Both the position numbers and the translations under genes were made by a program. The notes under the pieces were generated by a model. The model had not been told where the DNA came from. It worked only from the letters and a program-made list of their open reading frames with translations, and ran no database searches. Source: Candidatus Onthovivens sp. (GTDB taxonomy: Bacteria; Bacillota_I; Bacilli_A; RFN20; CAG-826). Taken from it: a DNA stretch of 64,000 bases. The DNA is taken from contig JAXEEC010000056.1 in the NCBI GenBank assembly GCA_034104285.1, positions 84,439 through 148,438 on the forward strand, in the 5' to 3' direction. The first letter of the stretch is position 1. Every line of letters starts with the position of its first letter. This document shows, in pieces, positions 20,778-25,790 of the stretch.

Positions 20778-20786
20778 CTATATCTT

Positions 20787-20816
20787 AATTCAAGCTTAAA
20801 TAATATATGGACAAAA
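20787..20816. repeat. inverted repeat arm B (pairs with 25517-25545)
   Basis: Reverse complement ttttgtccatatattatttaagcttgaatt matches ttttgtccatatatttttaagcttgaatt at 25517-25545, with a single 1-nt indel. Confidence 0.8.
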
Positions 20817-20822
20817 TATTAT

Positions 20823-22208
20823 TTATTCTTCTATTTGTGAACGTTTATCAATTTCTTCAAATGTTTCAATAAACTTTTGGATTTCTGTTTGAGATTGTTT
20901 CTCTTCTTGGGCAATTTGCTTTATAGCATCTATAATTCCATGGTCTTTATACCATTGTATTAAACAACGAGTTTTTGCTTTGAACATTTTACAAACTGAA
21001 TGTAAAGGCATAAAAGGTTCATCACCATATTCATATTGAGCGCCAAAGCATCCTCTAATACAACTATTAACATTCCAACAAGTATCACAACCATGATGAG
21101 TTTTTCTTTGATTAGAAAGTAAAATTTTGGTTGCTATTACTGGATTATTGGCTTCTATATCAATTATTTCATTATTTTCTACAATAAATTTTCCATATAA
21201 AAATTCAGGATATGCAGTACGATGACAGGGAGCAATGGAAAGGTCTCCCAATCTTACTGTAAGTTGATAGGCTACACTACAAGTGGGGAATTGAGTCGCA
21301 TCCAAAAGCAGAAAATTAGTATATCCATTTCGCTCCTCATTTAAGCCTAAAGACATTTTTGCAAATTTTCTAGGATTGCTATCATATCGATGTTCAAAAT
21401 GATAATCACAATAAAATTTTAAAAATTCTTGATAATGCGAAATTGCTTCATCAGTCCAATCATCATTTCTAACTTCTAATGTCATTACTTGCTGCAATAC
21501 ATTAAAATCATATTGTTCACACATATCAATAAACCACTTATAGTTTTCAATCCACTTATCAACTGAACATGCAGCAATCATAGGATGAGCGCAAAATCCA
21601 TTTTTTTTCATAAATTGAAATGATTTATGATAAAAATCCATGTCTCGTTTATGGTATATTTTTTGAGGACGAGAAAAATCTTCAATAATATAACCATCGA
21701 TAGATGCACTTAACACTAGTCGTATATTATAATTTTTGTTAAAATCATCAATATAATTTTGCACTTTTTCAGTCATTTCTTGGCTATGAATAAAAGAAAA
21801 ATTAGTGGGAACAATGATTTCTTCTAATTCATTTAATCCTTGTTCTTTATATTTTTTAATTATATCTAACACATTAAAAAATATCTGAGTGCCTACAATC
21901 TCTCCACTAAATATATCAATATGTTTTAAATATGGCCAATTTTTTACAGCATATTTTAATAATATATCAAGATTACTAAGAATAGTTGTTTCATTGCGTA
22001 ATTCGGCAGGATAAAGTTTATCGCCATATCGATTTAAATAACAATATTCACATTTTTGGTTACACTCAGAAGTTACATATAATTCTAAAGAACTAACACG
22101 AGAGCCGCCATTTAAATCTGATGAACAATTTTTATCACTCCATCCAGAGAAAAAAGCTGCATTAAGAATAAATTTTAAGAGTTCATTATTTTCACTTTTA
22201 AAAGACAT
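20823..22208 (-). CDS. radical SAM/SPASM-domain enzyme, type A (module 1)
   Basis: Cx3Cx2C is CNQKCEYCY. C-terminal Cys cluster is CDTCWNVNSCIRGCFGAQ. Paralogous to 52391-53872 and 59621-61018 (shared LSASIDG, AHPM, IDKWIENY, LEVRDDNWT, VENNEI, VCxxFKAKT). Confidence 0.85.
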   Translation of the reverse strand: MSFKSENNELLKFILNAAFFSGWSDKNCSSDLNGGSRVSSLELYVTSECNQKCEYCYLNRYGDKLYPAELRNETTILSNLDILLKYAVKNWPYLKHIDIFSGEIVGTQIFFNVLDIIKKYKEQGLNELEEIIVPTNFSFIHSQEMTEKVQNYIDDFNKNYNIRLVLSASIDGYIIEDFSRPQKIYHKRDMDFYHKSFQFMKKNGFCAHPMIAACSVDKWIENYKWFIDMCEQYDFNVLQQVMTLEVRNDDWTDEAISHYQEFLKFYCDYHFEHRYDSNPRKFAKMSLGLNEERNGYTNFLLLDATQFPTCSVAYQLTVRLGDLSIAPCHRTAYPEFLYGKFIVENNEIIDIEANNPVIATKILLSNQRKTHHGCDTCWNVNSCIRGCFGAQYEYGDEPFMPLHSVCKMFKAKTRCLIQWYKDHGIIDAIKQIAQEEKQSQTEIQKFIETFEEIDKRSQIEE

Positions 22209-22217
22209 GTATTAAAC

Positions 22218-22508
22218 TTACTCCTCTTTACGATAAAATGTTAAAAATTCATAAACGGCATTATTTTCATTTTTAATTATAGTATTATATACAGTATGGT
22301 CAATGCTATAAGGAATATCATCTATTATTAATATAAAGTCATGAATCCCATATACCTCTTCTCGCATAATATTAATAATACTTCTTCTATTATCATTTTT
22401 TATATAAGAAAATACTATTTTAGAATCCTCAATTGTTTGCAAACATTTTTCTGGAATATTGTCATGAGGATGTTCTTTTTCTCCATCAATAATATAACAA
22501 GTTTTCAT
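22218..22508 (-). CDS. hypothetical protein
   Basis: 96 aa ORF between the two rSAM genes. TAA stop. Confidence 0.4.
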   Translation of the reverse strand: MKTCYIIDGEKEHPHDNIPEKCLQTIEDSKIVFSYIKNDNRRSIINIMREEVYGIHDFILIIDDIPYSIDHTVYNTIIKNENNAVYEFLTFYRKEE

Positions 22509-22514
22509 ATTTTT

Positions 22515-24093: not shown

Positions 24094-24407
24094 GATACGA
24101 AGTATAAACTTTCTATAAAATTATTTTCTGTATTTACGCGACGAATAGCATAAATTAAACGATTACAAATCTGAGTATATATTGCAACACCATCATCATT
24201 GTAAATGGTAATTACTAATGAATTTAAATCTTTGAAATTTAAACTTATATTTTTAAGGGTTGGATCGGCAGGATTTGTATTGGTAATTTGGCCAATAGAT
24301 GAAAAACGTGTTTCAGCTAAAGCTTCTTTATCACCAAATTCAATATTCCAAAAATCTGGAATATCATAGGTTTGATTATTTGTATCACATGAAATACCAA
24401 TTTTCAT
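24090..24407 (-). CDS. hypothetical protein (module 1 accessory)
   Basis: 105 aa. TNTNPADPTLKNISLNF weakly resembles TTPGNPADAATALRVENI of 55816-56214. Confidence 0.4.
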   Translation of the reverse strand: MKIGISCDTNNQTYDIPDFWNIEFGDKEALAETRFSSIGQITNTNPADPTLKNISLNFKDLNSLVITIYNDDGVAIYTQICNRLIYAIRRVNTENNFIESLYFVS

Positions 24408-24850
24408 ATGTTTTTATTCTCCTTATTACGTTTATTTGCAAGATATGCCATATTTTTTTGTCTTTCAGCAAGCAAAGAATTATTCAATAAAAAGCCAGGG
24501 TCTTTATAAACTTCAGGAAAAGCAACTTTTCGATATTTTAAACCGTTTGCACCAGTATAATATACTTCAGTCAATTTTAAATTGCCGTTATCAATGTATT
24601 TATGTTCATGTATTTGATATGGTTTTGTAAGATAATCTAATGAAGAAACAAAATAGCCGCTATCATAATTATTATCATTTACAACAGGAACAACTTGATA
24701 TTTTCCTTGACGAGTAATTATTTTTTCCAATAAGATGTCACAAATATCAGATAATTGCTGTTTTTCTTCTTTCCCCAGTTGATTTTGTTTTAATATATTA
24801 TTAATATTAAATAAAATTTCAATAGGTTCTTGATTTATATCAATATTCAT
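24404..24850 (-). CDS. hypothetical protein (module 1 accessory)
   Basis: 148 aa. TGA stop. RBS AAGGTG upstream. Confidence 0.4.
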   Translation of the reverse strand: MNIDINQEPIEILFNINNILKQNQLGKEEKQQLSDICDILLEKIITRQGKYQVVPVVNDNNYDSGYFVSSLDYLTKPYQIHEHKYIDNGNLKLTEVYYTGANGLKYRKVAFPEVYKDPGFLLNNSLLAERQKNMAYLANKRNKENKNI

Positions 24851-24861
24851 TTATTCACCTT

Positions 24862-25494
24862 TTATTCTGAAAACGTATAAGTGGTTTCATTTGAATTTGT
24901 CGTTTGACTATAAGTTGTACCAGCTTTATATGAAGTTTCTGAATAGGTAGTTGTTGCAGTATTACTAGATTGACTACAATCACTACCATATACAACATGA
25001 CAACCACATTTAGAACTATTGCCACTTTGAGAATTTCTTGAAGAGTTTTGAGTACAATTACGGCCATTACTGGTGTTTGAATAGGAAGTGCCAGCTGTAT
25101 TAGAAGATTCACTATAAGTGGTTTGATTAGAATGAGAGGTCTAAGTATATAACGCGCCAGCAGTATTAACCACTCTTGAATAATGTGTTTGCGCTTCCAT
25201 AGATAAAAGAGATGCGGCAGCCGCATTTAATGTTTCATCTTTTAAGGGAGCGCCAGGATCTAGTTCCCCATTGGCGATAGTCCATTTTACACAAGTTGCT
25301 AAATGTTCTTCTGTTTGTGCGGAAACAAATTTATTATAAAGATTTGTTATTTCAGTAGAAAGAGGGTAGATACCCACTTCATTACCAGGCACACTCCAAT
25401 TCCAAGTTAAACCATGTGTAGTATAAACATTTTGTAAACGAGTAATTAATGAAGATAAATCTGTATATAAAATTGGGGTATTTTCAGTGGCCAT
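24862..25494 (-). CDS. precursor-like protein 1: N-terminal domain + Ser/Thr/Asn/Tyr/Cys-rich repetitive tail; 1 in-frame TAG
   Basis: RBS GGAGG + ATG at 25494. After TAG (25141) the frame continues as TSHSNQTTYSESSNTAGTSYSNTSNGRNCTQNSSRNSQSGNSSKCGCHVVYGSDCSQSSNTATTTYSETSYKAGTTYSQTTNSNETTYTFSE. Related to 55190-55813 and 62262-62852. Confidence 0.55.
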
Positions 25495-25516
25495 ACTACA
25501 CCTCCTTTTTAATTAT

Positions 25517-25545
25517 TTTTGTCCATATATTTTTAAGCTTGAATT
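25517..25545. repeat. inverted repeat arm A (pairs with 20787-20816)
   Basis: ttttgtccatatatttttaagcttgaatt. In the minus-strand transcript the two arms can form a ~29-bp stem with one bulge, enclosing 20817-25516. Confidence 0.8.
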
Positions 25546-25790
25546 TCTTGCGCTTCGAGGTCTGTATTACCTCTACTCTACTATTAATTTCGATAGTCGA
25601 TGAGCCTTCTCCTATTCGGAGCTTGGTTGCTGATTGTCCAATCTTCTAACTTTTTAAACCATTAACGTTTAAGCTTATTTCATCTTTTCGCGGTGGTATA
25701 GAAGCTCTAAGGATGTTCCAGCAGTTCACAAGATTTTACTTGAGCAATATCACCCAAGTCGTGCAGAATTTTTTGTTGCTACTGTATTAC

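Follow-up and report, generated by a model that had tools for sequence, protein, structure and literature searches.

Group I introns of bacteria and phages, as surveyed so far, are empty or carry a homing endonuclease gene or, in IStrons, transposase genes (PMC3984707, PMC11878797, PMC4227781). IStrons are group I introns fused to an IS200/IS605 element, such as CdISt1 of Clostridioides difficile (PMC4227781, PMC3984707, PMC10690162). Here, we describe an element that interrupts the PIN-PhoH (phoH) gene of a phage on the minus strand of a 64,000-nucleotide (nt) stretch of contig JAXEEC010000056.1, hereafter the window, to which all coordinates refer. Judged from its sequence, the element is very probably a group I intron, 5,007 nt long and structurally intact. 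It resembles an IStron in that a bacterial group I intron holds genes other than a homing endonuclease and in that self-splicing would spare the host gene. However, IStrons carry their own mobility genes (TnpA/TnpB) at the 3' end of the intron and are ~2 kb as a whole, whereas the cargo in the window has no mobility function and lies in the P8 loop. A group I intron in the fungal mitochondrial large-rRNA gene houses rps3, a gene of cellular, non-mobility function. That intron holds a single gene in an organelle rRNA, whereas the window intron holds a multi-enzyme operon in a phage protein-coding gene. Full-text literature searches returned no group I intron with a radical SAM (rSAM) or metabolic operon as cargo and no comparable phoH intron. 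The window intron belongs to a known RNA family, and its load is unprecedented: a conserved and selected seven-gene enzymatic operon without mobility function.

The ribozyme has two informative relatives. In a blastn search of phage genomes, 133 records matched the intron core only, and the best core match was the annotated intron that splits the major capsid gene of Bacillus phage SP-15 (80% over 149 nt). Like the window intron, it has the ribozyme core, a P7.1/P7.2 region and an open reading frame (ORF) in the P8 loop between complementary arms; unlike it, the loop holds one gene for a Phage_endo_I-like endonuclease. The second relative, on IMG/VR contig 3300045988_145614 (L082), is the same intron at the same phoH codon. 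This intron is 1,293 nt long and shares the P7.1/P7.2 region and 64-71% nt identity in the core with the window, but it has a LAGLIDADG gene in its P8 loop. The PhoH protein of L082 is only 46-68% identical and its P8 stem is only ~10 bp. Both introns agree with an earlier, sequence-only reading of the window, which held that homing endonuclease ORFs normally occupy this kind of loop. In SP-15 and L082 the loops are 0.8-1.1 kb and the ORF enters the P8 3' strand, whereas the window loop is 4.7 kb and holds seven non-nuclease genes. Moreover, P8 in the window forms a near-perfect clamp of 29 bp whose 3' strand lies 6 nt beyond the stop of the last ORF, an arrangement found in neither SP-15 nor L082.

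The split phoH gene and its predicted splice sites

The PIN_4 and PhoH gene is interrupted on the minus strand, where its reading frame stops at 25750 and resumes ~5 kb downstream. Exon 1 (25752..26616, minus strand) encodes the PIN domain and the PhoH P-loop. Its sequence runs on to ...CNTVATKNSARLG before the 5' splice site and ends in ...NSARLG plus the first base of a Phe codon. Exon 2 (20326..20744, minus strand) begins with the UU that completes this codon and continues with YPGTRDEK...AQNL and a stop. The intron between them (25751..20745, minus strand) ends in G20745. When U25752 is joined to U20744, the codons become GGG-UUU-UAU, read as ...SARLG-F-YPGTRDEK.... The predicted ligated junction has ...CGACUUGGGU on its exon 1 side and UUUAUCCUGG... 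on its exon 2 side, and the predicted ligated-exon 40-mer is AATTCTGCACGACTTGGGTTTTATCCTGGTACTAGAGATG. The product spliced in silico is 427 aa long and matches PHROG 2765 (phrog_2765, PhoH-like) over residues 12-426 with E=2e-79. It carries both the PIN_4 and the PhoH domain, indicating that removal of the intron restores an intact conserved frame and bearing out the view that a PIN-PhoH gene is split on this strand.

Relatives with an uninterrupted gene, which the sequence-only reading had thought would define the insertion site, do fix it. The phoH gene is contiguous in ~75 of 79 related IMG/VR loci, and the spliced-frame stretch ...NSARLGFYPGTRDEKLLDSQIGN... matches uninterrupted homologues without gaps. 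Eleven such homologues read ...NSAKLGFYPGTR(D/E)EKLLDSQIGN... with no gap at the junction. The intron sits at the conserved LGFYPG motif of PIN-PhoH, which it splits in the middle. Three features, the P1 pairing, the terminal G and the gapless homologue match, place the junction between U25752 and G25751 at the 5' end and between G20745 and U20744 at the 3' end, and G20745 as the terminal G is the sole junction position that matches the homologues without a gap.

The sequence-only reading had drawn the junction differently, joining 25791 to 20777 to give ...IIIF-F-RLAVKAARVIVYPG.... That junction is in frame, has a U before the proposed intron and a G at its end, and yields a product that loosely resembles PhoH 'ILTRPAV'. 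However, it is off by 39 nt on the 5' side and by 33 nt on the 3' side. It drops CNTVATKNSARLG, 13 conserved residues, and adds RLAVKAARVIV where homologues read IIIFCNTVATKNSAKLGFYPGT without a gap. In addition, P1 cannot form at 25791, G20778 falls within the P7 3' strand, and positions 20777-20745 are P9 and the intron tail, which are kept as RNA structure with compensatory changes. The peptide RLAVKAARVIV, once taken as the counterpart of PhoH 'RPAV', is the translation of the P9 hairpin and the intron tail, and the resemblance is coincidental. Since joining 25791 to 20777 would delete 13 conserved residues and translate the P9 hairpin, we rejected this model; it is already refuted in silico, and its chance of being correct is negligible.

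Directly after exon 2 lies a terminator-like hairpin of 13 pairs (20289..20321), the sole strong site of this kind in the whole unit. The other terminator-like sites within the unit are the P9 hairpin itself and a weak 6-bp hairpin in the first cargo gene.

The ribozyme fold and the P8 clamp

The elements of the fold, all on the minus strand, are distributed over two parts that flank the cargo. The predicted P1 hairpin (25738..25759) consists of the exon strand ACUUGGGU (25759-25752), a GAUAUU loop and the guide GCUCAAGU (25745-25738). Positions 25752 and 25751 flank the 5' splice site. U25752, the last base of exon 1, pairs with G25745, and this U·G pair of P1 is invariant in all seven introns that were aligned. 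The 5' ribozyme part (25546..25751) spans from the P3 5' strand (25733-25727) to the P3 3' strand (25552-25546). Between these it holds P4 (25723-25718 with 25633-25628), P5 with a conserved extension, P6, the P7 5' strand GACUAU (25598-25593) and P7.2 (25573-25557), which is preceded by a vestigial P7.1. The 3' ribozyme part (20745..20786) comprises J8/7 (AAGAU), the P7 3' strand AUAGUC (20781-20776), which pairs with GACUAU at 25598-25593, the GAAA-type P9 hairpin CUUGCGG-UGAAAG-CCGCAAG (20772-20753) and the tail AGUAAUUG, which finishes with the terminal G at 20745. Along the transcript, the P3 3' strand is followed by a 29-nt arm, a ribosome-binding site, the cargo, a 30-nt arm, AAGAU, AUAGUC, P9 and the terminal G. 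The intron lacks P2.

The structured segment after exon 1 had been read as a group I core, and two results support this: the 80% identity to the SP-15 intron core and a local match to the Rfam model RF00028. The match covers 25546-25733 (minus strand) and model positions 50-157, from P3 to the P3 3' strand, with 29 bits and E=1e-5 in a 351-nt sub-window. The Rfam search suggested by the sequence-only reading thus recovered the core on this sub-window and nothing at the gathering threshold: no intron was reported at that threshold in the whole window, nor in E-value mode on 20600-25900. ORF-less introns with the same core pattern score 72-93 bits over the full length of RF00028, above the gathering score of 50. 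In the RF00028 consensus, the hairpin that follows the P3 3' strand is P8, which is the position of the long stem in the window, and it is followed by AAGAUAUAGUC and P9. Folding of the 5' segment as a single sequence in RNAfold was uninformative (z = -0.58).

For covariation, we aligned seven introns after swapping the P8 loop for a tetraloop. RNAalifold independently predicted P1, P3, P4, P5 with its extension, P6, P7.2, P8 and P9. When P7 was included as a pseudoknot, pairing was found in 95.2% of 499 cells and double changes in 35 of the 72 pairs. None of 500 shuffles reached the observed level, and sliding the partners reduced pairing to 30-44%. P7 is 100% paired with 2 compensatory pairs, and P7.2 has double changes in 3 of its 4 pairs; P7.1 is a 7-bp hairpin in SP-15 and vestigial in the window. 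The P7.1/P7.2 region, typical of phage IA-type introns, suggests that the intron is of IA type, an assignment that follows the general classification rather than a subgroup-specific model.

The cargo loop is closed by a long-range stem between a 29-nt 5' strand (25517..25545, minus strand; AAUUCAAGCUUAAAAAUAUAUGGACAAAA) and a 30-nt 3' strand (20787..20816, minus strand; UUUUGUCCAUAUAUUAUUUAAGCUUGAAUU), the latter beginning 6 nt past the last cargo stop codon. The stem proposed in the sequence-only reading is real and is P8: the arms are complementary at 29 of 30 positions, with a single bulge, and a blastn search confined to the window finds them with E=1.8e-7. The repeat search returns the stem as two gapless pieces. 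The clamp has an RNA duplex energy of ~-35 kcal/mol compared to -13 to -31 in the other introns, crude values from a script of our own in which duplex folding allowed odd interior loops, so they are usable as a trend only. The clamp stays clear of coding sequence, unlike in the endonuclease-bearing relatives. A strong clamp that is free of coding sequence fits a need to re-form behind terminating ribosomes.

To place the size of this loop, we scanned IMG/VR with a narrow core pattern and considered the 120 stretches listed, which contain 143 cores. The distance between the two strands of P7 is under 300 nt in 120 of the cores listed and 690-1,108 nt, the size of an endonuclease insertion, in 14. 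In one, a close relative of the window, it is 4,815 nt. The remaining 8 listed cores have no P7 3' strand motif downstream and could not be measured. Among the 135 measured introns listed, the median distance is 114 nt and the maximum outside the window lineage is 1,108 nt. P8 inserts in this set are therefore ~100 nt or 0.7-1.1 kb, and only the window lineage has one of 4.8 kb; the window intron is about five times larger than the next-largest subfamily member among those listed. A broader core pattern, GATTGGRYAATCAGCANCCAAGC, was abandoned for the narrower one because it matched many unrelated group I subfamilies, for which the P7 heuristic failed.

The window contains a second split gene that provides a local reference. 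An AAA_24 ATPase gene (4408-6476, minus strand) is divided into an N-terminal part (6093-6476) and a C-terminal part (4408-5034). A LAGLIDADG ORF (5149-5958) lies between the halves, and the arrangement looks like an ordinary endonuclease-bearing intron. Taken together with the loop-size distribution, this intron makes the 4.7-kb load of the phoH intron a clear outlier.

Seven genes in the P8 loop

Between the P8 arms lie seven co-oriented, tightly packed genes on the sense strand, filling the 4.7-kb loop with intergenic gaps of -4 to +11 nt. From the P8 5' arm to the start of the first gene, which GGAGG (25505-25501) precedes, there are 22 nt, and the last gene stops 6 nt before the P8 3' arm, confirming the earlier description of co-oriented ORFs between the arms, the first of them behind GGAGG.

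Gene 1 (24862..25494; this and the following genes are all on the minus strand) encodes a 210-aa substrate-like protein. Its disordered C-terminal half consists of (N/H)TAGTTY(S/T)QT repeats around a conserved C-x14-C-x-C motif. The protein belongs to a small, unnamed family (24 hits) with a conserved N-terminal domain. This domain is predicted to form three helices with a predicted local distance difference test score of 80-94 and is the sole confident part of the structure model. A Foldseek search of the family model against the Protein Data Bank (PDB) gave no match with E<=0.001. Genes 2 (24404..24850, 148 aa), 3 (24090..24407, 105 aa), 4 (23842..24093, 83 aa) and 6 (22218..22508, 96 aa) have no family match, and none of the four small proteins has a match in Pfam, PHROGs, NCBIfam or PADLOC. 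Gene 2 is conserved in free-standing copies of the module.

The two enzymes are encoded by genes 5 and 7. Gene 5 (22515..23840) specifies rSAM B1, a 441-aa radical SAM enzyme with the CxxxCxxC motif CNLNCRYC, a Radical_SAM match of E=8e-6 and weak matches to peptide-modifying rSAM/SPASM families. Gene 7 (20823..22208) specifies rSAM A1, a 461-aa radical SAM/SPASM enzyme with CNQKCEYC and a C-terminal Cys-rich region (SPASM model TIGR04085, E=1.5e-3). The best named matches of A1 are the ranthipeptide maturase PapB (E=1.6e-16) and PDB 5wgg. All family matches of A1 and B1 are below the curated cut-offs. A PADLOC scan of the cargo gave weak viperin-like rSAM matches only. In Pfam, PHROGs, NCBIfam and PADLOC, no nuclease domain is present in any of the seven ORFs, and no ORF matches a transposase or TnpB. 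The module also contains no protease gene and no transporter or exporter gene.

Several of these genes are visible in full only if TAG is a sense codon. There are four in-frame TAGs in exon 1 (near 26145, 26133, 26073 and 26052), one in gene 1 (25143-25141) and one in the rSAM B1 gene (22781-22779). A suppressor tRNA with anticodon CUA is encoded at 41443-41517 (minus strand), where ARAGORN labels it 'tRNA-Pyl'. The cargo TAGs align with CAA/CAG in relatives, indicating that TAG is read as Gln, which gives the lengths of 210 aa for the precursor and 441 aa for rSAM B1. Because TAG is a sense codon, table-11 and standard ORF lists fragment these and many other genes of the window.

The module exists outside introns as well. 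In four other lineages (L083, L326, L327 and L328) it is a free-standing unit outside phoH and away from any intron core, and enzyme A is 59-71% identical. All seven genes are present in unchanged order in L083 and L326, and fewer small-ORF matches are detectable in L327 and L328 (three and two, respectively, of the four small ORFs, all of which are present in L083 and L326). Their presence in free-standing modules argues that the small ORFs are not endonuclease remnants. In two of these lineages, tail-fibre-like genes (Mtd_N; Laminin_G_3/DUF6273) lie ahead of the module and lysis and portal genes come after it. In L328 (4661-6535), the Ser/Thr/Tyr-rich repeat and Cys region (C-x14-C-x-C) forms an internal part of a 624-aa Laminin_G_3/DUF6273 protein, whose gene neighbours an Mtd_N tail-fibre-like gene. 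This arrangement suggests that the rSAM enzymes may modify a virion or fibre-associated protein, so that the target may be not a released peptide but a virion protein. For enzyme A there are 217 homologues, none of them named and many on contigs of 100-480 kb.

The window phage carries three such rSAM systems. Besides the intron cargo, modules consisting of a substrate-like protein, rSAM B and rSAM A are present at 52391-55813 and 59621-62852 (both minus strand). Their A enzymes are 32-34% and their B enzymes 21-25% identical to those of the intron cargo, so low that the intronic module is not a recent internal duplicate. Neither paralogous module qualified as a second intronic operon: we found no core motif, no Rfam match and no split flanking gene at either.

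How far does the cargo resemble known maturation systems? In common with radical SAM/SPASM clusters (PapB ranthipeptide, CteB/SCIFF and three-residue cyclophane), it has an A1 enzyme that matches PapB, SPASM and 5wgg, and B1 and B2 weakly match cyclophane-forming and other peptide maturases. As in peptide-maturation substrates, the substrate-like protein has a folded N-terminus and a disordered, repeat-rich Cys/Tyr C-terminus. Unlike those clusters, however, the window enzymes score far below the cut-offs, a protease and an exporter are absent, and the substrate is 210-250 aa. We describe the cargo, from these similarities, as a putative two-rSAM system that would cross-link a repeat-rich protein, possibly a virion-associated one. 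Accordingly, the sequence-only reading of a complete operon for a ribosomally synthesised and post-translationally modified peptide (RiPP) holds for a radical SAM module under purifying selection, while the RiPP label is questionable in light of the L328 repeats within a 624-aa protein; 'RiPP-like' describes a chemistry rather than an established fact.

Selection, mobility and the origin of the load

The intron with all seven genes occurs in four independent assemblies: IMG/VR contigs 177309 (L005) and 175607 (L004 and L076; circular, with its ends falling within the intron) and the Logan assemblies SRR19415682 and SRR19415686 (L086 and L087). Metagenome assemblies can be chimeric, and a chimeric contig could in principle have set an rSAM operon between two phoH halves. 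However, the architecture recurs in all of these assemblies with 2-50% difference per protein (identities of 50% to 100%), and the insertion is placed precisely within a ribozyme loop whose arms are complementary. An assembly artefact has practically no probability.

Purifying selection acts on both exons, all cargo genes and the ribozyme pairings. The ratio of nonsynonymous to synonymous divergence (dN/dS) lies at 0.02-0.25 in most cargo genes and at 0.05-0.18 in the phoH exons, and exon 2 compared to L086 has dN=0 at dS=0.26. In the four genomes of the cargo-bearing clade, all 287 of 287 pair cells are standard pairs, none is broken, and both sides have changed in five pairs (P5, its extension and P7.2). 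The retention of every pair, five of them through compensatory change, indicates that the ribozyme fold has been under selection since the cargo arrived, and argues against a dead intron.

It could still be that phoH is permanently split, its halves being separate proteins or a pseudogene, with an ordinary rSAM operon between the fragments. In favor of such a relic, the intron has no endonuclease or maturase, an in-frame TGA begins at the last exon base (codon 25752-25750) right at the 5' splice site, and gene callers report a GTG-initiated 146-aa ORF for exon 2 in relatives. However, that GTG sits inside the P9 hairpin and has no Shine-Dalgarno sequence, and the invariant LGFYPG motif is cut through its middle by the split. 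Beyond the fully paired fold with its five double changes, the ribozyme parts are 93-95% identical to L086 at an exon dS of 0.26-0.40, and both exons retain the low dN/dS given above, exon 2 with no nonsynonymous divergence from L086. We consider a dead relic very unlikely.

Six points weigh against a structurally intact, splicing intron. At 29 bits, the RF00028 match falls short of the gathering score, since a 4.7-kb insertion is more than the model can bridge. The loop-size survey covered 120 stretches and used a narrow core pattern and a heuristic motif for the P7 3' strand, and dN/dS was computed with a home-written Nei-Gojobori script. In the protein database, no junction-spanning protein exceeds 79% identity, which means that neither a spliced cDNA nor a close intron-less allele has been seen. 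Splicing itself is inferred rather than observed. Finally, we know of no experimental precedent in bacteria for a group I core that folds across a translated 4.7-kb loop.

The sequence-only reading had proposed that the intron mobilises the module, and this part has no support: none of the seven ORFs has endonuclease or transposase signatures, a single narrow clade accounts for all cases of the arrangement, other phages have the module in free-standing form, and no close intron-less allele was found in the protein database. The cargo-laden intron could nevertheless spread the rSAM operon by homing if a LAGLIDADG enzyme supplied in trans cleaved intron-less phoH. In L082, the very same phoH site holds an intron with a LAGLIDADG gene, and a paralogous LAGLIDADG enzyme is encoded in the window genome itself, in another intron within the split AAA_24 gene (4408-6476). 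The excess of cargo dS (0.7-0.9) over exon dS (0.26-0.40) relative to L086 could reflect cargo exchange. Against this, the intron lacks an endonuclease, without which, and without a transposase, autonomous mobility is unlikely. The cargo arrangement is found in one narrow clade only of ~79 phoH loci, the module is free-standing elsewhere, and the databases searched contain no close intron-less allele. Moreover, the window and L082 have diverged alike in the intron (64-71% nt identity) and the exons (55-82%), giving no sign of recent transfer. Homing in trans is, on balance, improbable.

A broader proposal is that group I introns are general insertion-tolerant cassettes for phage operons. The long P8 clamp would then be adapted to a translated multi-kilobase loop and might double as a double-strand RNA processing site that releases an end-stabilised cargo mRNA, and the intron would be copied into intron-less phoH when a sibling LAGLIDADG enzyme cuts during co-infection. 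We regard this combination as rather unlikely. If the intron does move in this manner, a self-splicing intron would be a vehicle for the horizontal transfer of a protein-modification pathway.

Several side observations concern other introns and the history of this one. Between the window (20823-25494) and L086 (5708-10386), cargo dS is 0.6-0.9, two to three times the exon dS of 0.26-0.40; this hints at recombination or exchange of cargo alleles within the intron. In IMG/VR 3300029786_000002 (L078; 8001-8798), the PhoH match ends at residue 283, five residues before the intron site, where the sequence ends, and an intron may be present at the same site. At the window edge (~30-600, minus strand), positions 530-564 resemble P3-P5 of the phoH intron (83% over 35 nt) and a LAGLIDADG-like fragment lies at 34-174; the 530-564 stretch, beside a Toprim-domain gene (803-1909), may belong to another intron. 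The gyrB gene (15468-18715, minus strand) also appears interrupted, with its N-terminal 430 aa (HATPase_c, DNA_gyraseB) at 17423-18715. The ORF that follows this N-terminus (16480-17211) is GIY-YIG-like by eye and by analogy with L086, and a TCGACTATCC motif lies at 16473. In L086, gyrB is split differently, with HNH_3 and GIY-YIG ORFs. Finally, Vibrio phage ICP1 (L003) has a full-length RF00028 match of 78 bits at 1014-1305, in the tape-measure region and upstream of an HNH gene, distinct from the core matched by the window, which is at 2501-2660.

From the observed anatomy, homology, covariation, selection and distribution, we infer how splicing, cargo expression and the order of evolutionary events would run for an intact phoH intron. 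A single transcript would extend from upstream of phoH to the terminator past exon 2, and the 5' core would fold first. Once a further 4.7 kb of RNA is transcribed, the 29-bp P8 clamp would return the P7 3' strand, P9 and the terminal G to the core, and guanosine-initiated splicing would join U25752 to U20744 and restore the 427-aa PIN-PhoH. The cargo would be translated from its own ribosome-binding sites, with TAG as Gln, either on the precursor or on the 5-kb intron RNA after excision. Most likely, an ancestral phoH intron held a LAGLIDADG gene that the cargo replaced or displaced, and the cargo would now be a vertically inherited resident of a neutral safe site rather than an autonomous mobile unit.

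The locus is a natural test case for the interplay of long-range clamps and translation with ribozyme folding. If the intron is spliced, a group I ribozyme can assemble across an actively translated 4.7-kb loop in a bacterial cell, and gene callers systematically mis-annotate such loci as two fragments and an unrelated operon. Intron loops would then be neutral landing sites that store accessory pathways of phages within essential or conserved genes. The locus also draws attention to an uncharacterised but widespread phage two-rSAM system that may modify virion or tail-fibre-associated proteins.

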